Shown: positions 12,350 to 62,740 of the stretch, one piece after another
How positions within the stretch are numbered: the first letter of the stretch is position 1
Layout: the number at the start of each line of letters is the position of its first letter
NCBI GenBank assembly: GCA_965235115.1
Contig: OZ249436.1
Coordinates: forward strand, 23,438,001 to 23,502,000
Length of the DNA: 64,000 bases
DNA from: Laetmonice hystrix
Lineage: Eukaryota
Direction: 5' to 3'
Made by a program: the position numbers and the translations under genes
The notes under the pieces: generated by a model
Seen by the model: the letters and a program-made list of their open reading frames with translations, nothing else
The model's database searches: none
Told to the model about the DNA's origin: nothing

Positions 12350-13437
12350 CTACTACGACTACGCCTATAATAATAAAAATGGGTCAAGTTTTCCATCCTA
12401 ACCCCAATGGTGAAAACCAGACATTAATACCTTTAACCGTTTTCGAAATATAATTGATTTTTGGTTGAAAATGAAATAAAAAGGGTGATGGAGCCAGATG
12501 GGGTCACGTGACAGCACTTAAATAGGGAAATGAAAGGTCATATAAGATGTCCCATGAGTTTAATTAGTAACCATGTACCCATCTGGCTCTTTCTCCAAGT
12601 TATGGTCATCTGAAAATACCAATGACGTCATATAGTCACATAGAGTCACGTAACCTAATCAAAAATGGTGTCATTTGAAAGGCCATATACGACTTCCTAT
12701 CTGGCTTCAATAGTAACTATGGGCCTATCTGGCTATGTTTCCAAGTTAGTGCTAGCTGAAAACGCTGATGACGTCATACTGCCATATACGGTCACGTGAC
12801 CTAATTAAAAATAGTGTCATTTAAAAGGCCATATATGACTTCCTACCTAATTAAAAATGGTGTCATTTGAAAGGCCATATATGACTTCCTATCTGTCTTC
12901 AATAGTAACTATGGGCCTATGGCTCTGTTTCCAAGTTACTGCTAGCTAAAAATACTGATGACGTCATACAGTCATGTAGGGTCACGTGACCTCATTATAA
13001 ATGGTGTCATTTGAAAGGCCATATATGACTTCCTATCTGTCTACAATAGTAACTATGGGCCTATCTTATTGCCATATATGTGTCATGAATGTGTAAATTG
13101 ACCCATTTACCAAAATTCAAGGGCCCATATCTGGGTCAATATGGGTCAAATGGAATTTATGTGACCTTCACCTTTTGAATCCGGCCATGTAGTCTCCCAG
13201 TAGTCAATTTCAGCCTCATTTCACTAAAATTCTGGGGCGTGAATCGATTTTGTCACGTTTAGACCTATGACCCTTACCCCCAAGAAGGTCAAAGGTCAAA
13301 GGTCAAACTATACTCCACAATTTTGTAGGCCACTTGTCCAATAATGATTATGGCAATAATTTTACCATGAATAGAGGCCCATATATATCTGGAACCGTTT
13401 TAACGTCATTACGTCAAGACCTTTCGTCATATGACGT

Positions 13438-14090
13438 TGTGTTGGCTCACACTTACATGTATTACCAATTAAACTAGAAAACAGGGATAGAAATATAGGA
13501 GTTTAATTCTTCACAGAGAAGTAAGTTCATATAAGACGTAAGAGGTAGTTCCTGGAGTACAGACGTACCAAAATGACTCACATCCATAATTCTGGGTACA
13601 AACGGACGAAGATGACCGAACCTGTCTAGACGTCTGGTGACCGACATCATTAAATATTCGACAGGAGCACGGGACTTCCAGGAATGGGCATAGAGGTAAA
13701 CCAATGAGAAAGAGGCAGGTAGGAGGTAAGGTAAGCCAATAAGAAAGAGACACGTAAGAGATGGGATTTTACCCTGGAGAGAAGGAGAGGTATAAGTAGT
13801 TAGGACTTAACGGAAAAGGGGATAGATAGTGCGGGCTTACGAGAGAGAGAAAATGAGTGAAGGGAGTTAACAGAGAAATTCCCGCCAGGAACTTGTGCGG
13901 GAGTAAACTGTTATTCCCGGAGTATGGAGACGTATTGGAGGATTGTACGTGTTCGGAAGTTATTGTGGGAATAGACAACATCATATGGATCATATATGTG
14001 TGAAGCTTTATGCTACCATGTTGATTACATTCGTCAACAACAGGAGTTTAACTACTCAATGCGGGAGATAAATAGAAACCCCCCAACACA
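13438..14090 (+). repeat. 5' LTR (653 bp)
   Basis: tgtgttggctcac...gaaaccccccaacaca; the first 544 bp match the 3' LTR at offset 5622. Confidence 0.9.
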
Positions 14091-14092
14091 CT

Positions 14093-14103
14093 TGGTGGAG
14101 AAT
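14093..14103 (+). promoter_or_regulatory. Primer-binding site, tRNA-Ala-like
   Basis: tggtggagaat lies 2 nt after the LTR and is complementary to a ...ATTCTCCACCA 3' end (recalled tRNA-Ala type). Confidence 0.7.
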
Positions 14104-14173
14104 CCAAACGGCGGAACACCACGGAAGCTAAGTTAACTACCACATTTAGGGGAGAGCCTGAAGTTGGATTTCC

Positions 14174-14653
14174 GTGGATATCACATCTAGTCGAGAGAGC
14201 AAACTATGGTGGAGAATTATACCTACGAAACTTTTCAAGGGTGAGATGGATTCAGCCAACTATGTTATGGATATACGGTTCTACAGAGACGGCCGTCCAC
14301 TGAGAGAGGGTTACTACGGTGGCTTCCCCCGACGGGGGCGCGGAGAGCACACCCCGGAGCGACCGGGCGGCTGCCGTGATGGCCCCTCCTGGCGCGGCCG
14401 GGGCCGGGCAGTCACAGGCTGGAAACAACCGCTCTGTGACGGCCAGCCATATCATGGAACAACGGCCCACTCGACGGACGTGTGCCGCCGGCTCCGAGCC
14501 TGGAGGCCCGGAGACAGACGCTATCAGGACGACCGGGACAACAGATATCTCACTACTGGGTTCAAAGGTCAGGCAAATATACCCTCCCCCACGGTTAACT
14601 TCAGAGACAAGGGAAACGCCAGGCGCGTCCCTCGACAGAGGCCAGGATTTTAA
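14174..14653 (+). pseudogene. Possible gag C-terminal remnant (Arg/Gly-rich, His/Cys knuckle-like)
   Basis: Positioned just after the PBS; RGRG repeats; C..YHGTTAHSTDVC motif. Confidence 0.4.
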
Positions 14654-15775
14654 ATCTCTGTCAGAGGGACGGGAGTTCGATAGTTGTGCCGTTTGACAAC
14701 CAGGTTTCTCAACTACCCATTCTGAAATTAATGTTTGCTAGACACGACGTCTGGGCGGCTAGAGTAGAGCCACCCCTCCTTACATTTCCGCTGCTGTGCT
14801 CGACAGACTACCTGCTGATTTATTACTTGAAACTCAATCCGCCCAGGACTCACTAACTGACAGGACACGTGTGTTAACGACCGCCGAGGTTTATGGTTGA
14901 TGCAACGTAGATGGTTGGAAAGTTCCCTATGTGTTTGGATTTCACAGTTCTTTCACAGTTATTTCATTTTCATGTATTACCTTTTGGGATTGTGTCACGG
15001 TACACACTACACGACATACACATTTGCCGCCTGTCTCTGAGGTACTGTTATTCTGTGCCGTCTCGCGGGACATTCCGGACGGGACGGAGGTATTGGTTAC
15101 ACCTACGGGAGCAGGGCCAGGCACGTATACATGTCACTGGAAAATCGCTTAACACAAGGTACGACGGCGGAGTTTATGTATCTGTCATCAACGCCACGGA
15201 TACGGTCCTTCAGGTCACACCTTCTATATGCTTACGGCATACGCCGATGTCAGCTCCCCTGCTACAATGGAAAATAATGGCTTCCGTTCACCCAAGCAGC
15301 AGCTCTGGACGATGGCTTCCTCAGAAACGTCCAGGGAGCATATAATTATATGGTCACGCTACCAGCGCCTGCAGATGGCTACATGGAGATTACAGCCAGC
15401 TGGACATAAAGCCCCAGCTGGGATTCTGTAGGCACACTTCAAATACCGTTCAATCCCAACGCTGGCTATGCTCGTATGGGACACGGGAGATTCGCCCCTC
15501 GGCAATCAAGGGAGCAAACCCTTGTCCGAGGGACGACTATGCAGTCTTGGTTGGTACTGTGATCAGCCTCTGTGAGAATATAGGGGGGCTGATGCCCGAC
15601 AACCAAGATTGCAACAATATTTATCGTAGAAGTAGTTTCCACCCCTATATACTCGCGTGGGGTGAAGCCTCATTGCAGCACGAGCAGCATACAGTCCCGT
15701 TCCGGGCGCCTAAAGGAACGTCGGACCGGTATACAAAGTCCCACCTACACAGGCAGGTTTGCACACGCGAAGAAG

Positions 15776-16110
15776 CGTCCAGCCTACACAGGTGAAGTTA
15801 CACGCTACAAACAGCGTCACGCCTTCTCAGGCCCAATCACAAATTACTAGAAAAGTCCCACCTACACAGGCAGTTTTACACACGCCTACACAGGTGAAGT
15901 TACACGCTACAGACAGCGTCACGCCTCCTCAGGCTCATCTACAAATCCCACCCACGCAGGTGAAGTTACACGCTACAGACAGCGTCACGCCTCCTCAGGC
16001 TCATCTACAAATCCCACCCACGCAGGTGAAGTTACACGCTACAGACAGCGTCACGCCTCCTCAGGCTCATCTACAAATCCCACCCACGCAGGTGATGTTA
16101 CACGCCCCAT
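15776..16110 (+). repeat. 66-bp in-frame tandem repeat (PPTQVKLHATDSVTPPQAHLQI)
   Basis: caggtga(a/t)gttacacgc at 15891, 15957, 16023 and 16089 (period 66), plus a further copy at 15789. Confidence 0.9.
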
Positions 16111-16597
16111 CTAGCGGCGAATCTCCGGAGATCAATTTACACGCTTCACACAGCGTTTCAGTCACAGAAGCAGAATCACAAACGATGTCTAGCTTCCTAT
16201 ATACCTTCAACACGTTGGTTGTGCCCCACGGTTGAAGAAGGCTTACCTGCTGGCCATCCCAGGTTAAGCAATATTAAGTGCCCTACAGTAAACGGCCTAC
16301 CTGCTGGCCAACCCAGGGAAGCCAGGGCACAAGAATCAGCTGGCCGGCACAGCCAGTTGTACGATGACAGTCGAGATTTACAGTCACCAGCAGTGCACCT
16401 CCGACAAGCGAATAAGCACTGCTTCCAAACGGAAACTTGGGCCACCGTACGGGGGTGGAGGACGCTCCCCCCACCCGGCGGCCAGGAGGGGACAGCGGGG
16501 ACACCCAACCCCGCCGCGAGAGAACGAACTTGTCAGTTGAACGAATCATGCGGGAACAGGCTGCATGGTGACACCGAATGTTAAGTACTGAGCGAAT

Positions 16598-18486
16598 ATG
16601 TTTTGCTTCACAGCGTGCCATATGATACCCTGCACGTGTCCAAAGTCTCACTATGGCCACACTCAGCACGCTTACAGCATCAGTCAAATCCTCCAGGGAG
16701 TTCCAGACCTAACTCGAGGTGAGCTTTCTCCGTACCTCGTGTCACGTCAAGCTTTAGTTGGCGCCTTGTCAAATATATCAAGGTACCTCGAAAACCATTT
16801 TCCACATCACAAGTTAGCATTTGACACGCCGGCGTATTTTTACGACAACGCTAGTCCCGTTTTTTCTAGACGGGGACGGAAGTTGGATATTCTTATTCGG
16901 ATACCCATCACCTCACAGACACATCTGTTTCGGATTTATCATGTACATCCGCTCCACATCCCTATTCATGTCGTCAATGACACGCGAGTGGATGCTACGA
17001 TTATCAACAATTTACCCTCTGAGGTTGCGGTTTCTATAGATAAACAATATATTATTCCTCTCTCCGATCATGATTGGCAGGATTGCACTGGGGATGAGGT
17101 TCAAATATGCCCGAACCTCTGGTATATGCGGTATATCTCCGCTGATGTCTGCATTGCAGCTTTGTATAGGGACGAGGCCGCACAACATATCTCGTACGGG
17201 CATCATTCCCCGAACGGTTTCTCTACACAGGCAATGGTCATGCTGTTGTTAGCTCATTAGCTACAAAGGCGGATGTTTTGTGCAGGGCGGAGCCACTGGT
17301 CGCGCTGGACATTTCACACCTAGCCTTGATCACACTGGGTTGTGATTGTGCTTTGCGATCGAAGGACACATGGATTCCGTATCAACTGAGCGGGTGTGAC
17401 ACTCGAACATTTGATACCACTGTTCAGTACCCCGTCAATTCGCTTTTGATGGGGGCCATGGGAATCCCGCTTCCTGGCGGCCCGCCCGATCACATGCTCT
17501 TAGAGCCATGGGTAGTTGACGACCCCATCTTGCCAGATGACGACCTACGGACACCGGAATTCAAGGCTGACCAAACCAACTTCAAGGTTTCCCTTCGCCA
17601 GCTACAGGACGCCCGAGATCACCATACCCCATTGCTGTATAACGAATTGGATGGAGTATCTGCGGCACAGGCTAATATATCTACCAGGTCCTGGATACCT
17701 TTGGGCCTTTTACCTGCGTTAGCTATGGCATTGGGGGCCGCATTTCTGCTGATTCAAAAACATAGGGCTGCTATTATTGCTCTATCGACATTGGGCGCGC
17801 CTAGGGCTACGGCAGATGTGTTATTGAGCCATTCTTCACCGGCACGAGTGGATTTACCAGAAGTCGGGCGCCTGACCATGTACGCACAGGCCACCGTGGC
17901 GCTTGGGGCTTTACTCCTTCTGGTTACTGGCATGGTTTTTGGACTGTTATGCTACCATGTCACCGGCAACGACCCAGCGGCAGGTTTGGCGTTACAAGTC
18001 TACACCGGTTCAGAATTACTGACCATACGCTTAGGAATGACGAACTTTGCTACCGAAACACTGACTTTGTCTCGGTTACCCTTATTGACCCACTATGCCG
18101 TTACATCACACCGCTTTTCTGCCTCCATGACGCTGGCGTGGGCTTCCACGCTAATTGTTCAGCATCATATGAATCGCCAGGCTGACGGATGTACGGTTCT
18201 GTCCTTACCACGGACAGTGCCTATTTCAAGACGACAGGCGCTGGCCTTGGGGTCAGTGCATCCTTCCCGTGTGCTGGTCCGTCTCCTGAGGTACGACCAA
18301 GGCCTAGCAACCATAATCCCTTCAGACACTGTGGGCACCGTGGGCAGTTGGTCCCACGTTCCGGCGGAGCCAGGCCAAGACCAGCCCGCCGCGCTCAACC
18401 CGAAACTCAATCCCGCTGACTATCACCTCAGTACTTTCACCACACGGGACACCGCAGCAACACGTGACGTCCGTGACGACGTATAA
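16598..18486 (+). pseudogene. env: Envelope/fusion (F-type) glycoprotein, frameshifted near 17190
   Basis: LTRGELSPYLV...YFY...LDILIRIPI...FRIYHVHPLHIP, then a Cys pattern (C..ICP..VCIAALY; LGCDCAL..WIP..LSGC) and hydrophobic segments (WIPLGLLPALAMALGAAFLLI; VALGALLLLVTGMVFGLLC); lies last before the 3' LTR. Confidence 0.7.
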
Positions 18487-19059
18487 AAACGGACACCATT
18501 AATCGATTTATTGTGTGTATTTTACTCTGGCATTATATAAGCCCGGATTATCTAAAGAGTTTACTCAACTTATTATTTGTGTGACATTTATATGCTCAAC
18601 ATTTCGCAAGTTTCGAACGTGCCAGCAGGACTTTATCATTGGCGCCCTTCTTTTGAACTATTGGTGTCTTTCATAGGAGGCTTCTCTCCTGACACGAACT
18701 TTTTGCCATAAGGACTCTGCCTTAGTAATACGCGTTATTATCTAGTTATTAGTAGAGACGAAGGTTCATCCTCTTTTTATGTATTCTTGTTCGCATGGAT
18801 GTGCATGTCATGTGTATTTTTGTACTTTGGGTATTGGTAATTAGCTTAGTACCATACTTAATCCAGCGTACTCCGATGTCTCATCCTGTATACCAGGTGT
18901 TTTACTGATGAGTCAAGCCTCGGACTCACGGGAATACCTTTAGGATAGATCATGGTTCGTACACAAGGAACACGGTACCCCTACCGTATAATCGCCCCCG
19001 GGCATATATTTATAACAAATAATTTTCGTTGAAAATTATTTTAAGGGGGACCGCGCGGG

Positions 19060-19907
19060 TGTGTTGGCTCACACTTACATGTATTACCAATTAAACTAGA
19101 AAACAGGGATAGAAATATAGGAGTTTAATTCTTCACAGAGAAGTAAGTTCATATAAGACGTAAGAGGTAGTTCCTGGAGTACAGACGTACCAAAATGACT
19201 CACATCCATAATTCTGGGTACAAACGGACGAAGATGACCGAACCTGTCTAGACGTCTGGTGACCGACATCATTAAATATTCGACAGGAGCACGGGACTTC
19301 CAGGAATGGGCATAGAGGTAAACCAATGAGAAAGAGGCAGGTAGGAGGTAAGGTAAGCCAATAAGAAAGAGACACGTAAGAGATGGGATTTTACCCTGGA
19401 GAGAAGGAGAGGTATAAGTAGTTAGGACTTAACGGAAAAGGGGATAGATAGTGCGGGCTTACGAGAGAGAGAAAATGAGTGAAGGGAGTTAACAGAGAAA
19501 TTCCCGCCAGGAACTTGTGCGGGAGTAAACTGTTATTCCCGGAGTATGGAGACGTATTGGAGGATTGTACGTGTTCGGAAGTTATTGTGGGAATAGACAA
19601 CATTCATGGATTATATTTGTGAAGGGTTATATGCCAACTCGGATTGTGTTCTTCGATATACGGATTTAACTACTCGGTATGGAGGATGTGGAGTATAATA
19701 AAGGATCGAACCGGATTTCCTGAAGTGTTGTTCATCTCACCCAAACCAGCGAAGCTATACCAGAGTTAGCTCACCCTTATTACGACTCTGGAACTTTATT
19801 GGGGTAGACCTCTCGCACTGCTAACGGAATACCAAACGGACTTTACACCAAACCCGACATACGATACGATATACGAAACATAAACGTAATTGAAACCCCC
19901 CAACACA
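19060..19907 (+). repeat. 3' LTR (848 bp)
   Basis: Same termini as the 5' LTR; carries an aataaa near 19697 that has no counterpart in the 5' LTR. Confidence 0.9.
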
Positions 19908-20299
19908 ACGTCATGGGTTACATGGCCAACTCATCTTCCTCCTAGGACTCGACAATGAGGCAATGAGGCAGCTTCCAAACCCCTAAAAACGTCGTTATTA
20001 GGACATAAGGTCATGACCTTGGGTCAAGTGACATCGTACTTCGAGATTTGAGGTCTCCAGACCATGGCCAACATCTGTGCCAAGTTTCATTAAGATATGT
20101 CCAATAGCAAATGAGATAATCACCCAGTTTAACTACGACAATAACTAGAAACTCTGATTGCCAAGCAATACAGGTGGGATCCCATTTCCCCAATGGTTTT
20201 CTATCATTACCTACATTTTTCTCTCCTTTTTGAAATGTAACTGTCCTGTGTTTCCGCCAACTGTTCCACAGGTATACTTGACACTGCCGTGCCGTGAGC

Positions 20300-25380: not shown

Positions 25381-26830
25381 CTAGCCTTCCCTAGCTTTCA
25401 CAAACGAATCCCACGGGAGATCAGATTCTTTCAGGTTTTTGATCGGATGTTCGCGTTGGCTATAAATATGCACTCGATCTTCTTCGTCGATGTTTTCGCG
25501 TATTTTCCCATGTTTCAAGCGTTGTGCATGTATTGGAATACTCATTAGGTTGTTAGTGTGGTATTCTCTCAATTTATAATGTAGTTGGCCCTCTTCTGCA
25601 ACAATAACATAGGGACCGTGCCAATTGTGGCTTAAGGCTTTCGAAAAACCTTTTTCTGTTTCTAGGAACGTACACATATACTAGATCGCCGATTTTGAAA
25701 TTTGCGGGGCGGGCTCGTTTGTTGAACGCTCGGCGGTATTTATCTCGGCTTTCTTGCGATGTTAGTCGGCCAGCTTCTCGTGCCTTCTCAAGGATAGCAA
25801 AGAAACCTTCGAGATACTGACGAATTGAACGTTTTGAATTTGGTGGTGGTCTAATGACGGTGTCGACCGGCTTAAGTGGTTCGTGGCCTAGCATGAGGTA
25901 ATTCGGGGAGAACCCAGTGGAGGAGGATGGCATCGAGTTTATACAACTCACCACTGCTTGCATGGCTTTGTCCCACTCATTTTCAAAATGATCCAGATAA
26001 AAGGACAGGACCTGTTGTACTGTCTCCTGTAACCGTTCCACAATCCCATGTGATCGTGCCACATAGGGGCAAGAAAACTGTTGGTCCACTCCATAAATTC
26101 GACAGATTTCACGCATGATCTGTGAGGTGAACGCGGGACTTCTGTCTGATGACAGACTACGAGGGGCACCTAGTTTACTTAGCCATTCATCAAATTAAAC
26201 AGTGGCCACCTGCTCTGCTGTGGTATCCTTTATAGGCCTCAAAACACAATATCGTGTGGCATAGTCCATTATGACCAACGCATGCATGTTTCATACCGGT
26301 AGATGTTTCTTTAATTGGACCTAGTATATCAAGGGTCACCAGCTCTAAGACCTCTGGTTCTGGCGTTGTTCCAAGATCGGGGCGGCGTTGATTGGTGTCA
26401 CGCTTATGTGACTGGCATTCTCTGCAGGTATGGACGTAATGAGCTACGTCTCTCGCTACTGTTTCCCAGTAATACCTTGCCAGGATTGCTTGAAGTGTTT
26501 TTTCAACTCCGAAATGGCCTCCCTGAACACCATCGTGATAATCATGTAGGATTCTACCGCGCAGAGACTTGGGGATTACCAAGCAATGGTTTTGCACACC
26601 ACCTTTCCCGTTGGCCCTACCAATGCGGCACAAAATTTGGTTCTCATTTACAAAATATTCTGGGGCATGTAAAATTGTTTTTCTAGTCTGATGATCATCG
26701 GCTGGCAATTGCCCACTTTCTATATAGTTTATGACATCTGCTACATCAGCATCCTCCAGTTGGAGTTTCCGAATGTCGGCGGCTGAGTATTCAGAATCGA
26801 CTGTACTTTCCCGGACCTGTCCTATAAATA
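25381..26830 (-). pseudogene. pol: Integrase (HHCC finger, DDE core, GPY/F module), frameshifted
   Basis: HDGVQGGHFG..C..C; TLDILGP; HGIVER; FSPNYLMLG; NWHGPY. Confidence 0.92.
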
Positions 26831-27358
26831 GACAGGTTCTGCTATCCCGTTCCGTCTCCGGCTCCGGGATCGGCTATGCCGATCTCGGAATAGGAAGTGG
26901 CCAGGTTACCATAACAACAACATAACAACAAACACAAGAGTGAATATGGCAGGTGATTTGACTTTGGTCGGGTTGGCTGCTCTGACAGATTGTGTCACCC
27001 TGCGAGCGCCATGCGATGACACGGCCTAGCTGCAGTGAATGCAAAACAGCACATCACTTTATGATCAAAATAGTTGAAAATACCACGAGATAATTGTGCT
27101 GACAGCCGATTCACTAAAGTCTTCAAATATTGATCCAACTACTTGACACTTCAAATCCATTGTGTCAACTCATGGAAAGAAGAAATCGAGGAAAACCCTA
27201 CGCCGTTAGACACTTACGGGACAGAGCCGATCTATCTCGGGACCCGGGAACGGCTCAGTTTCAAATACGCGCGTATCGATGACGTCACGGTATTTTCTGA
27301 TGACGCGACGCTGTGCTAAGCCGGAGCCGGAGACGGAACCGGGATAGCAGAACCTGTC
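26831..27358. mobile_element. MITE inserted in pol between RNase H and integrase
   Basis: TIR gacaggttctgctatccc(g)gttccgtctccggctccgg; aata on both sides; the joined flanks read open (QRLFIGQVRES). Confidence 0.85.
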
Positions 27359-27418
27359 AATAGTCTTTGGGTCCTCTTTACTACACCCAGGTCTATCGTT
27401 TAGTCCCTTTTTGGCCTC

Positions 27419-28692
27419 TTAACTCTTTGATCTTGTAAGGACACTAACAATGGGTTCCTTGGCCGGTAGGCAGGGGTCGCTCTCAACCGTTCGCTCATAC
27501 TCGCGTCTTGACATGGCATCGGCATTTCCTAACTGTTTTCCCGGTCTATTTTTCACTATGAAATTATAATTTAGAAGCTCTGTGGCCCATCGAGCAAATT
27601 TTCCTTTTAATTCTCTTTGTCTATTCAGGAGAGATTGGAGTGCACTATGGTCTGTTATGAGCTCGAAATGGTTGTGCCTGAGGTAGTGATCAAAGTGGAT
27701 CACTCCAGAATAGGCGGCCAGCATTTCTTTCTCGGTTACTCCATAACTGAGTTGATATTTTTGCAGGGATTTCCCTCCATAAGCCACAACTCTCTCCTTG
27801 CCTGAATCGTCATCCTGAGTACAAACCCTACAGAAAAATCTGAACTGTCTGTATAGAGCCTGAAAGATTTATCCAGATTTGGATGTGCGAGAATGGGTGG
27901 ACTGGTCAAAGCGTCCTTAATAATTCCAAATGATTCCTCGCATTTGTCAGTCCAGACAAATTTCTCACCTTTTTTCAAGAGATTGTTTAAAGGTTTAGCT
28001 ATCTTCGCATAGTCCCTAATGAAGCGTTTGTAGAATTGTGCCAGGCCTAGGAAGCTTCGCGTCTGTTTCACTGTCTCTAGTCTGGGAAATGCTTTAACAT
28101 CCTCACATATCCTCGAATCGGCTTTGATCCCCTCGGATGTTATGCGGAATCCCAAAAATTTCAGCTCATTCCGAGCCAACTGCGTTTTGGCCGCCCGAAG
28201 TTTTAGGCCTGCTTCCCGGAGTCAGTTGAACACGCGCCTTAAAGCATCTAGGTGTTCGGGGAAGGTTTTAGAATAAACCAGCAAATCGTCTAAATATAAT
28301 ACTAAAATAACATTTATCAAGTCCCTAAAAGTCTGGTTCATGCATCTTTGGAATTGGGCCGGGCTTGTGCTCAATCCCATTGGTAGTCGGTTAAATTCAG
28401 ATAAATTGTGAGGAACAGAAAACGCTGTGTACTGTTTTGTTGAATCGTCTAATTCCATTTGTAGGAAACCTTTTTCCAGATCAAAGCTTGTCAGATATCG
28501 TGGTCGGTTTCTCCCTACCTGGTCCAGGCAGCGGTCCATTCTAGGAAGTGGATAGGAATCTTTTTGGATCAATTTGTTTACCTCACGAAAGTCCACAACT
28601 AAACGTAAATCACCTGGTCTATTCGGTTTGGGTATTACTATTGCTCGGGCCGTTTTGCGCATATCCCTTTCCTGTGGAGCCCTGAATCCCAT
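27419..28692 (-). pseudogene. pol: Reverse transcriptase and RNase H, frameshifted; RT N-terminus apparently deleted
   Basis: RLVVDFREVN, YPLPRMD, DLEKGFLQ, LPMGLSTSP, YLDD; FLGLAQFYKRFI; YTDSS, EKEMLA, TDHSAL, NADAMSR. Confidence 0.95.
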
Positions 28693-28699
28693 GGTAAAG

Positions 28700-29190
28700 G
28701 TTCTACCTGTCCAACTGTTTTGTCCCTATACGGTCCATCCACAAAACACGGCACACACATCCTCGATCGAGGGGGAATCACTGTTCGTTTGACAATGTAC
28801 ACCTTACTATACGGCTTAAGGTGGATTACATGTCTTGCTAGGTTCAGCACAGCCTGATGCTGACGGAGGAAGGTGTCCCCTAGTACAATGAGTAACTGTC
28901 GTGAGTCCACAACATAAAGTTTTACTCGAAACCAACTTTGGTCCACAATAATGTTTAAATATACTTTACCAGCCACAGTCGCTCTCTTAGCACCATCTGC
29001 TAATAACACTGCCTTATATTCAGAAGAATATATCTTCACGTTATTTCGGCGCTGTAGCTTTGTTAATAAAGCTGACGAGATTGTGCTAATTTGTGCACCT
29101 GTGTCCACTAACGCGGTAGCTGATAGTCCTTCTACTGTCACTGGAATACAACTTTCTTCATTCATGTTCACTTCAACATAGCTGTCGTCC
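28700..29190 (-). pseudogene. pol: Retropepsin protease
   Basis: ALVDTGAQISTI ... IVLGDTFL. Confidence 0.9.
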
Positions 29191-29271
29191 TGGATGGTTC
29201 CTTTGTCCGCAATTCCTGATTCATACTTTTCCCTTGCCGACCCACAGTCACCAGGTTCCCTGTAGGTACAG

Positions 29272-30176
29272 CTAGCTAGTTTTTTGGGTAGTTCCGACGT
29301 GTCGGCCATCCTGAATGGCCCTGGGGTTGTGGCTGGATCCCCGCCGCAGATGTGTGGCACTGCCTTGTTGCACGTGGGATTCCACACGGCGTCCATCTTG
29401 CTGTCTCCTATATCCCCGATGCCTAAATTCCATCAGCTCTTCATGCCTTGTCTGTCGGTCGTGCTCCCCTTGTTGAAACTGAGGTGACGCCCGCCATTCA
29501 GGACGTCTGGGAGGTAGATATTTCGCAGGGGGTTTTCCCGCTCTGGGGCCTGGAGGGAATAATATGAGCCCTTCATGTGCCAACTGAAGCGCATCTCCCA
29601 GATCGGTCATCACTGAGTTATTTACCCAGCGATACACTGGATCGGGGAGACCTAGAATAAATTTCTTCACAACTTCATCGTTCGTCTTTTCCAGGCGTGC
29701 CTATCTTCTAGATAGTCGGCAAATTCTTCTAGATCGCCGAACCTGCTGTATTTGGCATGGGCAAAGTCCTACTCCATTTTGTGTCGATCACTCGCTCCTT
29801 GGTATCTTCTTATAAAAGCGTCTTTTAGTTTGCTGAAGTTGGTTTTGGATTCCCCGTCCAAGTTTGAATACCACTGAAGGGCAGATGCATGTAGATACGT
29901 CGGAAAGGCCCTGGCTTTTCTTCCATCGCCCCATCTATTAAAATTAGCGATTGCTTCAAAGTGCATTATGTAAGTCATGGGATCATCTCGTCGATGAAAA
30001 CGTTGAGGGTGTTTCTTAACCTCAGGCATTGCGTCTTCTTCCATTTTAGGCGATTGTTGTTGTTGCTGATGTTGTTGTATCTGTTGATGCTGTATCACTT
30101 GAAGGTTTTGTACGCCTTCATTTAGACCTTGTATAGCCTCATCTATGGTACGTTTCCACTGTATCTCTTCCGCCAT
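29272..30176 (-). pseudogene. gag: Gag (capsid-like), disrupted
   Basis: HFEAIANFNRWGDGRKA...ALQWYSNL...LKDAFIRRY; KFILGL...ALQLA. Confidence 0.85.
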
Positions 30177-38339: not shown

Positions 38340-39575
38340 GGGCCTGTTTCTCGAAGGTGTCGTAAGTTCAACATTACGCAAGGATTTACGCAAGGCATTA
38401 CGAATGGCATAAGTCATGGCGTAAGATGGTTTCTCGAGAGGTACTTACGCAAGACCTAACCTGAGGACTTGGGCATAACAGGGTACTGCAATGACACACT
38501 AGGTGGCATCAAAAAGAGGTCAAATAAGTGCGTTTCCATGGCAATCTATTGTCATTGAAATAGCTTCACCAGTTCGGAGTGGGTAACACATGAGAGGAAG
38601 GTCTGAGGACAGGGGATAGAGGTGTATAAAAATCTGCCACGCGGTGGTGCATTATAATCTTTCTGGGGGTAAATCAGAGGTACACATTAGAAATGAACAT
38701 AAGAATTGTCTCTGACATAAAATGTTTATCCATTATTTTGAACAAGAGTAGCCCATAGCAGTAGTGTAGGAAGGAAAAAAATATTGGGGGGGGGAGAAGT
38801 GACGTCATAATGACTTAAGTGCTGAACCCACCAAGGCGATTCCCCTTGCGATGCCCATGCGATTTTCACACCACCCTTTTATTTTACTGTAATTTTGAGA
38901 TTAAAGGATGGAACCCATTTCCTGAAAATTTCAGAGTGAAATTCCACCATTAAATCAAAAACCGCATGGCCGCCGCAAGGGGAATCGCCTTGGTGGGTTT
39001 AGCACTTTACGCCTATGGTTTTGCATTGAGCCATGCGGTCATTTTATAAATATTGGGGGCAGCAGCCCCCTCTGCCCCCAACTTCCTACGCCCCTGCATA
39101 GTGAAACTAGGGGTACGGTAGTGCATTCAAATGATACAAATTCATTAATACGGTACTAAATGTCGTTATCAGTAAAGTGCTAAGTTTATCTCTCTCTCAT
39201 TTTCCTGTTCTATGTATAGCTTATGTTCGATTACGTCCGATTCATGAAAATAATGTTCATCGTTTTTCAATGTAGCAAATGATGCTACATTGAGGAAAAT
39301 CAAAGTAAAATCAAGTTTACTGCTAGCACTTTTCTACCCATAATTTGGACTTATATTGAGTATACATGTCTTTTAACCTGCCAATGTTTTCCTGCTTCAC
39401 TGGTCAATGGTCACTTTCCACAAACCACTCAGAATCGGTTGCGTACGTCACCTCGCTGGTCGTCGTAACTTTAGACCTGATTTACGCAACGGCGCAAATT
39501 TGCGCAGCCGTCAAGAAACACCAACGACAGGATACGCATGGCGTAACTGATACGACGCTTTCGAGAAACAGGCCC
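38340..39575. mobile_element. Harbinger-like element E, copy 1 (contains 38759-39096 MITE with catag TSD, which itself contains a ~190-bp palindromic MITE)
   Basis: TIR gggcctgtttctcgaa; ctg/cgg flanks; colinear in reverse with copy 2. Confidence 0.85.
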
Positions 39576-39858
39576 CGGGTCTAGATTTCTTGTCCGCGTC
39601 AAAGACTGCCACTACGGGCTGTTACGTATCTCCGACGGGTTATTACGGATTGAACGGTTTGGGATGCTTGCCGATATATAGGCAAGCGTCACCACGTAAC
39701 CCACGCGTTGGCTACCTTGATTCGTAGCAACCCGTAGCAGGCCAATACCAACCCATCACAATAGGTAGGGTACCACCCGTAGCACGCCGTATCAACCCGT
39801 ATCAAGCCGTAGTGGATACGTACCAATACTTGGTGTGATCCGTTCCTATACCAACCAG

Positions 39859-42800
39859 GGGCCTGTTTCTCGAAAGCGTCGTATGAGTTACGCCATGCGT
39901 ATCCTGTCTTTGGTGTTTCTCGACGGCTGCGCAACTTTGCGCCGTTGCGTAAATCAGGTCTAAAGTTACGACGACCAGCGAGGTGACGTACGCAACTGAT
40001 TCTGAGTGGTTTGTGGAAAGTGACCATTGACCAGTGAAGCAGAAAAACATTGGGCAGGTTAAAAGACATGTATACTCAATATAAGTCCAAATTATGGGTA
40101 GAAACGTGCTAGCAGTAAACTTGATTTTACTTTGATTTTCCTCAATGTAGCATCATTTGGCTTGCTACACTGAAAAACAATGAACATTATTTTCATGAAT
40201 CTGACGTAATCGAACATAAACTATACATAGAACAGGAAAATGAGAGAGATGTAAACTTATCGCTTTACTGATAACGACATTTTGTTGCGGCTAGGCTTCG
40301 CAGCCGCTGGACATTTAGTATAGTTGGCCTCCCCCGTATATATATGTATGCCTATATATTATTACTGTATACTTTACTATCTGTATATGTTAGTATAGTC
40401 GAATCCTTGTTCCCGTTTGTATTCCCTTAAGGATGGGCGGCTCGGATGTCGTGTATATATTTAATCATGTAGTTGCTGGAGTATTGGGTTCCCTTAAGTC
40501 GGATGCTGGTGCGGGCTGGAACCGGGGACGCTCGGGCCGTCACCTCCCAAGTTGCGTAACGGGTGTATCGATACCGATGTCGTGGTGAGGTGACACCAGC
40601 ACGTACCCAGCGTCTTCCGTCCGTGTTGGCCTCCATGGCGGACCCCCGGCTGGGCGAGCGGTGTCACTGGGGGCCGCGAGATCCGGACACTGACCGACTG
40701 GTGACACGATGTCATCACGCGGGTCCGTGTCGGTGACCGCGGCCACCGGGGTCTACTGCTGGCAGAGCGGAGGGGGTGGAGTTCCGGCCGGGATGCCGAC
40801 ACGGACGGCGTTTAGTATATATAGGGGCACCGAATATCCAGTTAGATATAGTTTGTCTAGAGAGCTAGTTGTTCGGAGTATGTGCCCGAGCTGAGCCGTG
40901 GCTCAGTCTCGGGTCCATATAGTTCGTTTTGGCGCTCACCGACTTGACTCCTACTCGGGGAGTTGGTCAGTGAGAGAGTTGTTCTCGGTTGGTCAGTAGC
41001 ATGAGGTTCGGCCTCTAGGCTAGTAGAGTATCCCGCGATACTCTATACCATGTATCATGTCTGACAATACAAGTATCATCACCGCCAGCCGTCGTTGACT
41101 TATCTTCCCCTCGCCAGGGTGGGTCCACAACATTTTGGTGACCGCGATGGGACGGTCTCTTTGACGGCACCGCGTGGCGCTGCAGTGTGGACATACACAC
41201 TCCACGCGATGCCTGATCTCATGACCGTCCAGTACACGGACCCACGGCCATGGAATTCGAAGGCACCCTGGTTGAGTGCACGAAGCTGCAGCGGAGCATA
41301 GCGAAAGGTAGGAGGATAGTCTTGATGGCTCCCATCTATATTGCGGAGACGGACCAGCTATGAAGCGACGCTGGTGGAGTTGGCGGGCCGTGTTCGAACG
41401 TTAGCAGGCTGGGTGTGGACCCTGCCGGGTGTAGCGTTGCAGTAATCACCGAGGACGATGGCACCGAGGACGATGGCGCCGAGGACGATGGTCTCGGCGA
41501 GGGCGATGGCGCCGGGCTGGGCGACAACGGTGGTACCGAGGTATGTGGGTGCTCTCTGGATGGCCCAGCGGAGGCCCCTGTGATGCGCAGGTGGATGGCC
41601 GCGGCGAGGATGGCCATGCGAGGCGGGCGTCAATGATGCGGGCAGTGGACCGGATCAGCTGGGAGGCGTGACTGGCCGCATTGGACCGGGGGCGGGGGTG
41701 CGCACCCCCGCACTGGCCCAGGGCAGGTCAGGCGGCGTCACCGGCTGGTCGACGAGGGCGCTGGTGCCGCCGAGGGCGATGGTGCCCTCGAGGACGATGG
41801 TGTCGCCGAGGACGACGGTTCACCGGGGGCGAACGGTGCCGCATAGGGCGATGGACGCGCCGACGACACTGGACCCATGGGATGCCAGTTTGAGACGTAG
41901 CCTCAGCGGAGGAATGGACACTATAGACGATCTATATATGTATATAATGTGTATTTACCGTAGGCCATTTCTGGGCGAGCCTTTGTATAGCTAGGCCGTA
42001 ATTCGTGGTGGCGATTTGTGTATTTTGTATTCGCCACATAACGGACGCTATAAACGGTAGGGTTTGGTTTTCTTTTAATTTATAACTGTGTGTTTTGTAT
42101 AGGCCGTAGTAAGCTTCGATTTATATATTTGTGTATTTTGCGTGCCTGAACGGATAGGCTATGTGTTGGATCCCCGACGTGGATCGAGGGGGTCGGTCGG
42201 CCAGACATGATATCGTCTGGCTAGGCTCGACAGTGAGACCACTATAGGGTGGTGCGGCTTAACCTACACGGAGGCCGGCTGTCGGAGCATACAGCGGTTG
42301 CCGGGAGGACCGCCTGGCGGCGCCCAAGGAAAATTGGGCTGGCTAGGCGGCGTGATCCTCCGTCGTGGCAAGGATTGGCGGGCTACCAGTGGCTAGGGCG
42401 GGAGCGCTGATCACGCTCCAGGTGCGCCCCCCTGGTGGCCATCAATACAAGGCAAACGAAGGCCTTGGGAGCGCGCTCCTGTCGAGGAGGCGCTACCCGT
42501 CTGTGCGACGGGCGTGTGAGGACCAGCCGGTCCTGGGAACTTGACTTTGTAGGTGGGGTTACTCCACGGTGTGATGTGGAGGCCGCAGCGCCTCCGGCAC
42601 TATTGGGAGTTTGGTGGCGCCAGTCGTTGCCGTAACCCCACCGAGGTAACGAAGGTTCCCGATACATGTACGTGCAGCGTGGGATGTGGCAGCTAGCGGC
42701 AGGATACCAGCTGGAATGGGAGGCTCACGCACCTCCAAGGTAGCATCAGGCTACTCCAGGCTGACGTCGATTCCACCGCATGCAATGGCCACTACCGTAG

Positions 42801-44189
42801 ATTAAGAATGGACATACAATAGATTGAGAATGGACTTCAATCTTTAAGGGGGGGAGGTATGTTGCGGCTAGGCTTCGCAGCCGCTGGACATTTAGTATAG
42901 TTGGCCTCCCCCGTATATATATGTATGCCTATATATTATTACTGTATACTTTACTATCTGTATATGTTAGTATAGTCGAATCCTTGTTCCCGTTTGTATT
43001 CCCTTAAGGATGGGCGGCTCGGATGTCGTGTATATATTTAATCATGTAGTTGCTGGAGTATTGGGTTCCCTTAAGTCGGATGCTGGTGCGGGCTGGAACC
43101 GGGGACGCTCGGGCCGTCACCTCCCAAGTTGCGTAACGGGTGTATCGATACCGATGTCGTGGTGAGGTGACACCAGCACGTACCCAGCGTCTTCCGTCCG
43201 TGTTGGCCTCCATGGCGGACCCCCGGCTGGGCGAGCGGTGTCACTGGGGGCCGCGAGATCCGGACACTGACCGACTGGTGACACGATGTCATCACGCGGG
43301 TCCGTGTCGGTGACCGCGGCCACCGGGGTCTACTGCTGGCAGAGCGGAGGGGGTGGAGTTCCGGCCGGGATGCCGACACGGACGGCGTTTAGTATATATA
43401 GGGGCACCGAATATCCAGTTAGATATAGTTTGTCTAGAGAGCTAGTTGTTCGGAGTATGTGCCCGAGCTGAGCCGTGGCTCAGTCTCGGGTCCATATAGT
43501 TCGTTTTGGCGCTCACCGACTTGACTCCTACTCGGGGAGTTGGTCAGTGAGAGAGTTGTTCTCGGTTGGTCAGTAGCATGAGGTTCGGCCTCTAGGCTAG
43601 TAGAGTATCCCGCGATACTCTATACCATGTATCATGTCTGACAATACAAGTATCATCACCGCCAGCCGTCGTTGACTTATCTTCCCCTCGCCAGGGTGGG
43701 TCCACAACAATTTGGTACCGTATTAATGAATTTGTATCATTTGAATGCACTATCGTACCCTATAGTTTCACTATGGGCTACTCTTGTTCAAAATAATGGA
43801 CAAACATCTTATGTCAGAGACAATTCTTATATTCATTTCTAATGTGTACCTCTGATTTACCCCCTGAAAGATTATATGCACCACCGCGTGACTGATTTTT
43901 ATACACCTCTATCCCCTGTCCTCAGACCTCCCTCTCATGTGTTGGCCACTTGGAACTGGCGAAGCTATTTCAATGACAATAGATTGCCATGGAAACGCAC
44001 TTATTTGACCTCTTTTTGACGCCACCTAGTGTGTCATTACAGTACCTTGTTATGCCCAAGTCCTCAGGATAGGTCTTGCGTAAGTACCTCTCGAAAAACC
44101 ATCTTACGCCATGACTTATGCCATTCGTAATGCCTTGCGTAAATCCTTGCGTACGTGTTGAACTTACGACACCTTCGAGAAACAGGCCC
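39859..44189. mobile_element. Harbinger-like element E, copy 2 (inverted), split by an LTR element
   Basis: Same TIR; cag/ctg flanks. Confidence 0.85.
40283..43709 (+). mobile_element. Young non-autonomous LTR retroelement (LTRs 40283-41132 and 42860-43709)
   Basis: TG..CA 850-bp LTRs that look identical (ORF translations identical at offset 2577); TSD attt, single in copy 1 of element E; PBS tggtgacc (tRNA-Trp-like) at 41136; polypurine tract at 42846-42857; no gag/pol ORF. Confidence 0.95.
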
Positions 44190-56354: not shown

Positions 56355-59300
56355 TTAACTCATGTTTGAGAAAAATAGGCTCTTTACCATTCTTTTATAT
56401 GTTCCAATACTACATTGGGTTTCCAGCACTTTTTTATATTTGTTAGCAAATTTTGGGCCTTGGATGATGATGGTGTTTTCGAAATATTTGGTTCTATAAT
56501 TTGGCACATGATATAAACATAGATTTAACTGTCTAGTGTTTCTTACGGCAACGTCCTGATATTCGATAAAGAGTTCGGTACAGACTTCAGGGAGAAGATC
56601 ATTTCTAAGCTTGAACATAAATGGGTCATTCCATGTCAAATCGACCAGTGGCTCCCGGGTGACCATCTCCAATTTTTTTCTTATTTGGCATGTAGTTAGA
56701 TCTATATATCTGAAGTACATTTCTGAAATTTTTCTTCCAAATTCCCAACGGTTCCCATGTTATACCCCCATGAGCCGTTTTTAGAGAGCTGCCATTCAGA
56801 AATTATAAGAGCTGGCAACTTGTATTTTTGCCCACTGAAACTTTAATATGTAGAGACCAGGAAAAAGTAATAACATTTTAATTCTCTGCTTATTCCTTGG
56901 AGTACCATGCCCCCCAAAATAGAAAAAAACACATCGGAGAAAAAAAAATTCAATATTCAAACATTTTTCATGCAAAAGTTCCTTCTTGTAACTTCTTGAT
57001 CTTTGGGGATTTGATTTATGGTTATATGAGGTGCATGCAAACACCAAAATAATCTTCTAAAAATAGACACAGGTGGCGCCACTAGTGGTCAAAAATGGCC
57101 GATCGCTAAATATGACCCATTTTGAGGGGCCATTTTGCCTATGTTGCCAAGGTGGAAGAGCACTGTGATATTTTTTCCTTGATAAAGCACATTTTGGACA
57201 TTAAAGAAAACTAAGCCCCTAATCCCTTCCATACTTCCTTCTCTGTCAAATAGTTTTTCAAATAATATCCATTTGAGTAAAGTTCACGCTGTGACGAGAT
57301 ACAAGGTACATTGTTTTTATATCATAAAATTTTTATTATTTGCCACAGAATTCTTGAAAGTGGTAAATAGCTTAAACTGTTGGTCTTTTGAAGATTTTTG
57401 TATTTAAATTAATTATTAAAGTAATTAATTAATTATAAAATAAATTTATGATTTATTTTTATATTTTATTTTATATTATTATATTTTATGATTTTAAGTT
57501 AATAAATCAATAATTTAATTAATTAATTAAATTAATTAATTAAAATAAATTTATAAATTTATTTATAATTAATTAATTAACTAATTAATTTAAAGACAAA
57601 AATCTACAAAAGACCAACAGTTTAGGATATTTACCACTTTCAAGAATTCTTTGGCAAATAATAAAAATTTTATGATATAAAAACAACGTACCTCATATCC
57701 CGTCACAGCGTGAACTTTACTCAAATGGATATTATTTGAAAAATTATTTGACAGGGAAGGAAGTATGGAAGGGATTAGGGACTTAGTTTTTGTTAATGGC
57801 AAAAATGTGCACTATCAAGGAAAAAATATCCCAACGCTCTTCCTCCTTGGCCACATAGGTAAAATGGCCTCTCAAAATGGGTCATATTTAGCGATCGGCC
57901 AACTTTGGCCACTAGTGGCGCCACCTGTGTCTATTTTTGGAAGATTATTTTGGTGTCTACATGCACCTCATATAGCCATAAATCAAATCCCCCAAAATCA
58001 AGAAGTTACAAGAAATAACCTTCGCATGAAAAATGTTTGAATATTGAACTTTTTTTTCTCCGATCTGTTTTTTTCTATTTTGGGGGGCATGGTGTTCCAA
58101 GGAATAAGCAAAGAAATAAAATGTTATTGCTTTTTCCTGGTCTCTACGTATTGAAGTTTCAGTGGGGAAAAATACAAGTTGCCAGCTCTTACAGTTTCTG
58201 AATGATAGCCCTCTAAAAATGGCTCAGAATTAAACGTGCTTTGTTCAGGGGTACCCCCACCCTCGCTTATCGGGGTGTAACTCGGAGACCGTTGGGTATT
58301 TTGGAGCAAAATTTTAGGATTGTACTGCAAATACACAGGTCTAACTGCATGCCAAATTTGAAAGAAATCGAAGATGGTCACCCGGGAAGATTTTCCAAAA
58401 TTGGTCGATTTGACATGGAATGACCCAAATATGAGTACGTTATACGCATATAGCCACTTGAGGGGAAGTATATTTAAATTTCTAAAAAGCGGTAGCGTAT
58501 GTTGACGTCTGCTATTATTGGTAAGTATTCTCACAGCTCTTTTTTGTAATTTAACTAAGGGATTAAGGGTATTTGTACTGGATGTTCCCCAGATCGTGGT
58601 ACCATTAATAAGGTATGGGTAAATAAGGCTATAATAGAAATTATGGAGATTCTCTCTATCAAGTATCTTGACAAGTTTATTTAAGACGGCAATATTTTTG
58701 CTAATTTTTAATGCGATGTAATTTACATGCCCTTTCCAAGATAGTTTTTCATCAATAATGTACCCCAGATATTTTATTTGTGCTACACGCTCTACTTCTA
58801 TATTATTTAAGTATAGTTTTAAGTTACAGTTAGGGTTAACACCTTTTCTGGAGAAGAGGATATATTTAGATTTTTTAACATTTAGAGATAATTTATTCAT
58901 TCTAAGCCAGTTGACAATTTTCTTAAGCTCTTGGTTAGCCATGCTTATTAAGTCAGCAGGGTCTTCGCCCTGTAAAAAGAAGGCACTGTCATCAGCGAAT
59001 AAGTTTAATATGAATTCGGAAGATACATTCGATAGATCATTTATGTATATAAGGAAGAGCAGGGGCCCTAAAATAGATCCTTGTGGAACGCCTGTAGTTA
59101 TTATTTTGTTAAGCGACGTGGCATCGTTATATTTAACGTGTTGGTGCCTATCCGATAAATAACTTTTGAACCAATTTAAAGGGGTTCCCCTGATTCCATA
59201 GTGGTTTAATTTTTCTATTAGGATACCTAGGTTAACAGTATCGAAAGCCTTACTAAAATCTAAGAAAATTCCTAGAGTATACTTTCCATTTTCAAAGGAG

Positions 59301-59442
59301 CTTGCAATGTAATTATTTAAGAAGTTCAGAGCTAATTCCGTTGAATGTTTTTCCCTAAATCCAAATTGGTAGTTATAAAGTATTCCATGACGTTTAAGAA
59401 ATTTAAGTAATCTTTTATGAACCAATTTTTCAAAAAGCTTTG
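56355..59442 (-). pseudogene. LINE ORF2 reverse transcriptase fragment, interrupted at 56623-58426
   Basis: QFGFR, FLDFSKAFDTV, GVPQGSILGPLLFLIYINDL, FADD, KYLG; removing the insertion restores the frame (YNVLIF-MFKLRNDLLP). Confidence 0.92.
56623..58426. mobile_element. Foldback (near-palindromic) non-autonomous DNA transposon, Sola2-like
   Basis: TIR gggtcattccatgtcaaatcgacca; 4-bp TSD aaat; arms inverted over about 0.8 kb; AT-only core at about 57400-57595. Confidence 0.85.
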
Positions 59443-61503: not shown

Positions 61504-61854
61504 GTAAGTTATCAAGTCTCAAATGAAGAGTAGTAACGCTAGCTTTTTACTGTTGTCTGAAATATTTGTTTAAGAAAGGCCCTCATCCAATAATTATTCT
61601 AAATTAAGCCGAGATGCAATGTAAATGTTGTTTTTCGATAGGCCTATGGAACTAGGTCTTATATTAAAGGTGCTTCTGAGAGACCCCTATTTGTGCCGTC
61701 ATCCATGAAAAAATTTGATTTCCTTGGTTGTGAATCTATTTCCATGATAGGGAATCACATAAACATCAACAAAATTAAAAATTAAAAAATGGAACTTTTT
61801 CCCAGCAATAGCACCTTTAAGATCAAAAATCGAAACTTTTATTTTTGTTTTCAG

Positions 61855-62496
61855 GATCTGGTGTTTACACCCAAGAATGTGTCCAGACTAGACCACTTGA
61901 GGTTGTGTTTTTGGTCGATTCATCTGGCAGTATCCAGGACCAGCCGGATGGAAGCCGTGACCCAGAAGACTGGCTTCGCCTACTAATTTTCGTCAAGGAA
62001 GTTGCTGAAGAGCTCCGTAGTAGGATAAGCCAAACCCGTTTGGCCCAAATAGTCTTCAGCGACCGAGCCGAGGTGCACATCCCATTCGTAGATGATGACG
62101 CCACGCAGAGAGGCCGTTCTTTTAATGTAAGCGTGGATGAAACGCCCTACTTTGGGTCGACGACGAATATTTCGGGTGCATTGCTAACAGCTGTCGAACT
62201 ATTACAGAGTCAGTCCCGCTTATCAATGGAACAACGGCTTATAATGCTTATCACGGATGGTCAGGCCAATGTGGACACAGCCCGGACACTGACGTCCGCG
62301 GCGGAAGCTCGCCGTGTAGCCCAGGTTTTTGCAGTGGGAGTCACAGATTCGGTGGATATAACGGAGCTGCGTGCGATCGTCAATGAAGTTCCTAATGCGC
62401 GAAACAGCAGGGTGATCACTGTAGACGACTTCAAGGGTTTGACACAGAGGACTGGAGACGTTATCAGGGTCGTTTGCCCCACTCAACCGCCACCTG
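61855..62496 (+). CDS. Exon: von Willebrand factor A domain 1 (collagen VI/matrilin-like secreted protein)
   Basis: VVFLVDSSGS (MIDAS), TNISGAL, LITDGQAN, VFAVGV; tttcag acceptor and gtgagt donor. Confidence 0.92.
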
Positions 62497-62740
62497 GTGA
62501 GTGAAACTAATGGTACCTAAACAGTCGACCTGCCCGTTAATGCCTCGGCTAGAAAGATACGCAGATAAAAGTTATGATACAGGGCCTACGTCTTTGCCCT
62601 TTCCCGGACCTTTTGTTTGCCTCCACTCACCCCCCCCCCCCCTCCCCCGCCGTAAAGTTTTAAGAGTGACGTCGCCACTGGGTTGTAGTGCATGATTAAG
62701 AGAGCTCATAAGGCCTAAGTGCGTTTCTTCTACTTTTCAG

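Follow-up and report, generated by a model that had tools for sequence, protein, structure and literature searches.

How a single insertion can carry two unlike long terminal repeats (LTRs) is the question raised by the element at 13438-19907 of the window, the whole stretch of 64,000 nt of Laetmonice hystrix DNA that was analysed. The marks of an LTR retrotransposon are present, namely TG...CA LTRs, a primer site, a polypurine tract (a run of this type, short and recognised by eye, lies immediately 5' of the 3' LTR at 19043-19050, + strand) and a target-site duplication. However, where two LTRs identical at insertion are the canonical expectation, identity is here confined to 544 bp, which agree letter for letter between 13438-13981 and 19060-19603 (both + strand) and extend no further on either side. 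This shared part comprises U3 and, as we infer, the first ~160 nt of R. In the 5' LTR (13438-14090, 653 bp) it is followed by a short R-U5 tail of 109 bp (13982-14090, + strand), and in the 3' LTR (19060-19907, 848 bp) by a long R-U5 tail of 304 bp (19604-19907, + strand), which leaves a length gap of 195 bp. The tails align between 13982-14057 and 19604-19676 with 52 of 71 columns identical (73%), at a local score of 49 that was equalled in 0 of 2000 shuffles (shuffle maximum 38), and the first ~75 bp of both are, judged by sequence, truly homologous. At the termini, 19 of the last 20 bases are alike in the two LTRs, the terminal 16 bases are the same in both tails, and the LTR ends form 8-bp inverted repeats (TGTGTTGG...CCAACACA). 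Divergence of the LTR pair over the shared part is below 0.55% (95% bound), and neither tail recurs within the 64,000-nt window, nor does the LTR. The preliminary description of this locus had reported the exact shared part, the loosely homologous tails, the shorter 5' LTR and the common terminus, and these observations are borne out.

Copies of ACGT at 13434-13437 and 19908-19911 flank the whole element, as had also been described. Contigs from three sequencing runs (X1, X2, and X3) of one sample add evidence for this duplication, in that loose contig ends before 19908 in two of the three runs represent repeat copies free of the element, with sequence like the left flank running into 19908. 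The intact 4-bp duplication together with these copies resembling an empty site argues for a single integration event, and the duplication rules out an ectopic crossover between two separate insertions. Simple ageing, which had been rejected before, is ruled out as well by 0 differences in 544 bp against 19 mismatches in 71 columns. Such complete identity beside 27% divergence in the following 75 bp points to one template for U3 and the start of R and to two lineages for the tails, and the last parts of the two LTRs derive from two different sister lineages.

Behind the 5' LTR lies a single primer-binding site (14093-14105, + strand), a 13-nt perfect complement of the tRNA-Ala 3' end. Supplement 1 of a study of the 'ancient errantiviruses' of non-insect animals (PMC13524379, eLife 2026) lists primer sites like this one for ENV_F elements from corals, a sipunculan, polychaetes, and molluscs. 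The decayed internal region that follows (14162-16660, + strand) includes a 66-bp tandem array at 15735-16105. By eye, and without significance, one may also recognise an Arg/Gly-rich stretch that resembles a gag end and contains a His/His/Cys motif (14453), and an LLDT motif like that of a protease (14735). No Pfam reverse transcriptase, RNase H or integrase was found in nine internal ORFs, protein searches returned no homologues of two internal ORFs, and there was no match in word-index protein searches, Rfam or ARAGORN and no usable match in the Atlas. At 16667-18321 (+ strand) lies a broken F-type (baculovirus-F-like) envelope gene, which has lost its first third and has a frame break near 17180. 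It has 535 relatives at E<=0.001 and aligns to profile positions 234-402 and 410-795 of 798; Baculo_F scores over the cut-off in 2 of 14 env relatives and under it in 2 more, and among solved structures a 'fusion protein' (9w4d, E 1.4e-13) is what the profile of these relatives matches best. The env relatives sit on long ENA contigs. A comparison of the env ORF with viral contigs gave 0 loci, and three DNA-pattern matches (one viral and two metagenome) have no other likeness to the element and are put down to chance. On sequence grounds, then, the element is a pol-less, internally deleted derivative of the Ty3/gypsy 'ancient errantiviruses' with F-type env, and not an intact member. Its F-type env remnant, its multi-copy state and its LTR length range are common to that group, but it differs in the missing pol, the internal deletions, the broken env and the unlike LTRs (PMC13524379). 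Since pol is not recognisable, a helper would be needed; a gypsy remnant at 25574-29432 is not demonstrable in this role, having no significant likeness to the internal region.

In the sequenced sample the element belongs to a family that has multiple copies, numerous LTR variants and a very variable U3. The long tail is the main LTR form of this family: depth in its bin at 19638-19839 is 5.9-7.8 times the internal median, and relative to U3/R it is 0.89-1.17. Solo LTRs are probably common, as the depth of the long-tail LTR lies far above the internal depth. A long-tail-like LTR variant leads into the primer site in one contig of one of the three runs (depth 47), all three runs have another type of leader that branches off behind 14124, and the deepest contig of the family has the primer site doubled in tandem, where the element has a single one. 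No tandem primer site was found in the open-access literature, the nearest case in the accessible text being the 5'/3' pair of Drosophila gypsy (PMC1635307). The base shared by the two LTRs at 13934/19556 is missing from all depth in two runs and from ~91% of it in the third, which indicates that both U3/R copies came from one source and places the crossover within 13935-13981. The internal part is ~1.7% off the majority contigs (10 of 24 listed pieces, picked by hand), a distance to collapsed contigs that may show subfamily differences rather than decay. Taken with the broken env and set against the close LTR pair, it argues that an old template was recently re-copied. Residual depth for the short tail is nil in X1 and 181-332 in X2 and X3 under generous assumptions, with up to 380-1280 under lean ones, while internal subfamily contigs have a depth of ~160-300; as an estimate that spans nil to ~1280, it was not used for the choice between models. 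Among the joints listed none connects 19603 to 13982. The 18 of 250 loose ends listed include none behind 14090, but the numerous flanks that are bound to exist behind 19907 and before 19060 left no loose end in this list either. A second asymmetric copy was not seen, in contigs that would have had no power to reveal it.

The position of the switch can be related to predicted signals in the LTRs. A promoter-like layout at 13701-13795 (+ strand), predicted from its motifs, has CCAAT at 13701 and 13736 and TATAA at 13791, so that transcription likely starts near 13820, ~160 nt upstream of the identity switch, and this stretch of R would be identical at both ends. Two stem-loops lie in the putative R region (13874-13981, + strand), and the switch coincides with the 3' foot of the second, where a pause of the reverse transcriptase would be expected. 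The fold of 13850-13990 has -41.4 kcal/mol (z -3.78), and 0 of 200 shuffles were as good. AATAAA occurs at 19697 and is confined to the 3' LTR, in agreement with the earlier claim that the 5' LTR lacks it. However, GATAAA (14067) and AATAGA (14071) lie ~20 nt from the end of the short tail, and CATAAA (19879) lies at a similar distance from the end of the long tail. We take all three to be weak variants of the poly(A) signal, and a 5' LTR without any such signal is therefore not established.

The explanation that we favor, and to which we give somewhat better than even chances, is that the insertion arose sporadically, through reverse transcription inside a particle with two different RNAs and a Ty3-type plus-strand jump through R-U5. 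A non-autonomous, internally deleted element of the errantivirus type would lately have been re-copied beside a second RNA of the same clan. The long-tail RNA, as the main form of the family, would have been primed and would have supplied the R-U5 of the new 3' LTR, while a plus-strand jump through R-U5 would have kept a different R-U5 at the 5' end, and integrase could have inserted the molecule normally owing to the same terminal bases on both tails. From such an origin one would expect U3 to be identical, R-U5 to differ and the target duplication to be intact. The asymmetry would be a by-product of mixed packaging that may recur when unlike RNAs pair, and the element's own RNA would erase it. 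Against this explanation count the heteroduplex of 109 and 304 bases, a large mismatch to be carried through integration and repair, and the residual short-tail depth, whose range takes in that of a single internal subfamily, in line with what a self-renewing asymmetry predicts. Reviews, too, assign mosaic but identical LTRs to mixed packaging. Moreover, no symmetric short-tail element was seen, such elements being assumed, and the start site is predicted from motifs. As a one-off, the insertion would be a clear record of reverse transcription from mixed RNAs with a second jump guided by R-U5. This route has been shown in the Ty elements of yeast, and the present case suggests it for an animal gypsy element with an envelope gene.

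Partial precedents exist. The original paper on plus-strand transfer through R-U5 in Ty3/Ty1 is reportedly that of Lauermann and Boeke from 1997, and 'LTR swapping' is said to appear in the title of a soybean study on recombination within LTR clans. In Ty3, plus-strand strong-stop DNA is transferred to R and U5 at the 3' end of the minus strand and not to the primer site (PMC5371799), from which a foreign 3' R-U5 and an own 5' R-U5 are expected after a single cycle. The Ty3/Ty1 route resembles the present case in that the 5' and 3' R-U5 can come from different RNAs while U3 is copied once; it was shown in yeast with like RNAs, however, and the accessible text describes no natural insertion with two subfamily tails (PMC5371799). 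Recombination within the Onsen and Ty1 clans also returns old or defective members to the cycle, often via R (PMC5668417, PMC6894440), and in Onsen it was pairwise recombination, for the most part within R, that rescued old members (PMC5668417). The products are described as mosaic, yet with two identical LTRs (PMC5668417, PMC6894440). For HIV-1, unlike LTRs from two co-packaged genomes are reported in 26 of 88 proviruses, with deletions (PMC9278108). Unlike LTRs within one integrated copy and strand transfer between two genomes are common to both cases, but in HIV-1 one LTR, mostly the 3' LTR, is deleted, whereas the present element has two complete LTRs whose tails are homologues that have diverged (PMC9278108). 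No description of a heritable form with identical U3 and subfamily-different R-U5 was found in the open-access literature, most subscription papers lying outside this search.

The preliminary description had gone further and proposed a parasite that borrows the R-U5 of a helper for its 3' LTR, with the asymmetry regenerated in each cycle. Helper-derived R-U5 is compatible with the absence of a recognisable pol, the dominance of the long tail and its occurrence before a primer site, and the known Ty3 jump (PMC5371799); regeneration in each cycle is not supported, since with a start that likely precedes the switch and an intact primer site of its own the element could make symmetric short-tail progeny. 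We consider unlikely a parasitic subfamily in which the 5' end retains the short tail and every productive cycle draws the long R-U5 from a helper packaged with it, either because short/short progeny would be unable to end their RNA properly or because a start at the switch would block the subfamily's own strong-stop jump. Under such a scheme the ~160 identical nt should drift apart if both ends of R were inherited separately, although the divergence of the tails does need long separate descent. AATAAA in the 3' tail only would suit it, but the variant hexamers of the short tail would not, and the perfect primer site leaves the element able to prime itself. The short-tail depth possible in two of the three runs is close to that of one internal subfamily, while X1 leaves nothing certain for the short tail, and ordinary mixed packaging would also yield long/long progeny with no trick required. 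Similarly doubtful is an obligately 'two-parent' errantivirus subfamily with a private short R-U5 at the 5' end and a 3' LTR rebuilt in each cycle from helper strong-stop DNA by an R-guided plus-strand jump, for which unlike LTRs would be normal and heritable and the doubled primer site part of the priming scheme. A heritable layout would mean a new parasitic strategy among LTR elements, and the 'two-parent' form would be a class of retroelements that breaks the rule of identical LTRs by design, is missed by LTR finders demanding full identity and would allow Ty3-type strand transfer to be followed in animals by a natural marker.

Other routes need no such cycle. Gene conversion after insertion could have overwritten the tail of the 5' LTR of a young, symmetric element, perhaps with the region of the primer site, from a short-tail sister, or an intra-element tract could have homogenised the first 544 bp of unlike LTRs. 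Conversion leaves the target duplication intact, homology is available on both sides of the tail (upstream in R; downstream in the terminal 20 nt, the primer site and the leader), one tract could also have covered the single primer site beside the short tail, and plant LTRs are reported to have inter- and intra-element tracts of 100-1000 bp (PMC7251063). We nevertheless give it a low probability, as a very young insertion would have to be broken within a target of 300 bp, the tract would have to cross diverged DNA of unequal length, and the switch at the foot of the stem-loop would be unexplained. The structure can also be read as a solo LTR plus one inserted unit: a long-tail solo LTR, already flanked by the ACGT duplication, would have been resident at the site and have taken up by recombination the cDNA or a one-LTR circle from a short-tail element. 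For Tf1, integrase-independent insertion into resident copies is shown, with hybrids (PMC11042837), and solo LTRs are probably plentiful here; a crossover should give reciprocal mosaics, however, whereas the two LTRs share 544 identical bp and minority bases despite the very variable U3 of the family, which makes this route very unlikely. An assembly error, in which two different copies were joined via the 544-bp repeat, is hardly to be expected: none of the sample's contigs spans the element, but a single target site accounts for the duplication and the two flanks, and the long genome piece suggests a long-read assembly, to which 544 bp would be no obstacle.

The locus also cautions that young copies can defeat both the dating of LTR pairs and the calling of LTRs. 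In the study of 'ancient errantiviruses', LTRs were called only as repeats more than 99% identical, and those called for several of its tRNA-Ala ENV_F elements are short (PMC13524379). A layout like this one would presumably enter it as an LTR of 544 bp.

The two LTRs of the retrotransposon at 13438-19907 are mismatched, and this feature is real. The preliminary description of the pair proved exact: 13438-13981 matches 19060-19603 without a difference across 544 bp, the identity stops at the very next base, and among the two LTRs an AATAAA is confined to the 3' copy (site 19697). At 653 bp, with its end at 14090, the 5' LTR is the shorter of the two; the 3' LTR is 848 bp long and stops at 19907. 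Past the switch, homology between the short tail of the 5' LTR (13982-14090, 109 bp) and the long tail of the 3' LTR (19604-19907, 304 bp) extends over some 75 bp (52 of 71 aligned columns identical; 0 of 2000 shuffles reached the local alignment score), and the 3' LTR has about 195 additional bases beyond this homologous stretch. The final 20 bases of both LTRs agree at 19 positions, and ACGT stands on either side of the element as target duplication. Element-free repeat copies enter 19908 from left-flank-like sequence in two of three sequencing runs of one sample, which is consistent with a single target site. Close to its end the short tail has GATAAA and AATAGA, and the long tail has a similarly placed CATAAA; we take all three to be weak poly(A)-signal variants. 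Given these hexamers, the short tail may not be a crippled R-U5 but the full one of a sister lineage.

CCAAT boxes at 13701 and 13736 and a TATAA at 13791 form a classical promoter layout by motif, and the transcription start is predicted near 13820, which would place about 160 nt of R inside the identical part. This stretch, delimited by the predicted start, is predicted to fold as two stem-loops (z -3.78; 0 of 200 shuffles as good), and the switch coincides with the second one's 3' foot, which reverse transcriptase reaches first.

The primer site (14093-14105) is a 13-nt complement of a tRNA-Ala end; the same end is given for F-env errantiviruses from corals and one sipunculan in the excerpted supplement 1 of PMC13524379, among 28 of 35 places for that tRNA class. 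A broken envelope gene, recognized by relatives and profile, occupies frames 16592-17257 and 17170-18483, with 535 relatives at E<=0.001; Baculo_F exceeded the cut-off in two of 14 scanned envelope relatives and fell below it in two more. A profile of 27 relatives matches 16667-17182 and 17182-18321, which spans profile positions 234-795 of 798; the gene thus lacks its first third, and the frame breaks near 17180. Neither the nine internal ORFs nor homologue searches yielded an RT, RNase H or integrase; motifs resembling a gag end and a protease are visible by eye only. We therefore class the element as non-autonomous, derived from an 'ancient errantivirus' but no longer intact. It also contains a 66-bp tandem array (15735-16105), one frame of which reads as a Pro/Thr/His-rich repeat. 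The decayed Ty3/gypsy pol remnant at 25574-29432 (-), with protease-like and integrase-like frames by eye, has no significant likeness to the element.

Contigs of the three runs contained 0.55-0.60 of sampled words, and 363, 408 and 406 of them aligned to 13982-20020. They describe a multi-copy family with at least two internal subtypes and many U3 variants. Depth in the long-tail bin is 5.9-7.8 times that of the median internal bin and about equal to U3/R, as summed contig depth rather than copy number. One contig (one of three runs, depth 47) joins a long-tail variant, by way of the LTR end, to the primer site, and thus 5' LTRs of long-tail type exist. A second leader type, a candidate pol-bearing helper or sister family, diverges behind 14124 in all three runs. 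The primer-site region, single in the window, is tandemly doubled in a deep contig of every run (depths 949, 380 and 844), which may hint at a second jump independent of the primer site. The doubled stretch comprises 28 nt (14088-14115), with the CA end and the tRNA-Ala primer site and 14 letters between the copies, and its contig is the deepest over the primer site in all three runs. Our literature search found no report of a tandem primer site; in Drosophila gypsy the arrangement is a 5'/3' pair (PMC1635307, in excerpt).

The base at 13934/19556, common to both LTRs of the window, disagrees with the whole contig depth of two runs and with about 91% of that of the third. The internal part lies about 1.7% from majority contigs (10 of 24 listed pieces from one sample, hand-picked as close subtype, omitting distant-subtype pieces, duplicates and three that differed at 0-1 positions), versus a divergence below 0.55% for the LTR pair, a bound from 0 of 544 differences. 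The contrast points to recent copying from an older template, although the 1.7% may instead be a subtype difference.

Textbook reverse transcription, even with two unlike RNAs, yields two identical LTRs (PMC6894440, PMC1950507, both in excerpt). We lean slightly towards a sporadic recombinant, produced by reverse transcription with unlike RNA partners. The primed RNA would supply the R-U5 of the new 3' LTR, U3 would be copied a single time, and the 5' R-U5 would be a heteroduplex in which repair or replication fixes either version; the observed element is precisely one such possible product, and its target duplication would be normal since the integrase end is retained in both tails. Old Onsen members are reported to be rescued when they recombine pairwise, for the most part in R (PMC5668417). 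In HIV-1, unlike LTRs marked by deletions were reported in 26 of 88 proviruses and attributed to transfer between co-packaged genomes (PMC9278108). Searches of open-access papers gave no account of identical U3 with subfamily-different R-U5 as a heritable form. The stronger proposal of the preliminary description, a parasite with a helper-derived 3' R-U5 whose asymmetry is regenerated each cycle, is not supported and appears unlikely: it requires failure of the element's own strong-stop DNA, whereas that DNA should jump normally and give short/short progeny, the primer site being intact and the predicted R beginning with about 160 identical nt, and ordinary mixed packaging should give long/long progeny. 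It would be workable if the true start were the switch or if symmetric progeny were dead ends, and a short-tail depth that is possibly at subfamily level in two runs keeps it viable.

Conversion between elements, for which tracts of 100-1000 bp are known in plant LTRs (PMC7251063, in excerpt), is an equally doubtful source of the mismatch. A cDNA that recombined with a solo LTR already in place would have a precedent in Tf1, whose cDNA enters resident copies (PMC11042837, in excerpt), but this reading is weakened by complete identity over 544 bp despite a U3 that varies across the family, and we consider it improbable; misassembly is the least credible reading, and very improbable. The joint from 19603 to 13982 is absent among the listed contig joints, and none of the 18 of 250 loose ends listed lies behind 14090; but the contigs show none behind 19907 or before 19060 either, where many flanks are to be expected. 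The depth assignable to the short tail, depending on assumptions, ranges from nil to 380-630 in run X1, from 181 to 520-620 in X2 and from 332 to 1060-1280 in X3, which leaves room for a multi-copy short tail.

Elsewhere in the window, a second pair of identical direct repeats of at least 300 bp at 40283 and 42860 (2577 apart), nested in long inverted repeats (38375-44153), may be a further small LTR element inside a foldback or DNA element. An inverted repeat of 715 bp (56771-58226; 89%, 26 nt apart) adjoins a 447-aa reverse-transcriptase frame (58124-59467 (-)), LINE-type by eye, and 61821-62504 (+) is a host exon whose frame resembles von Willebrand A, again by eye.
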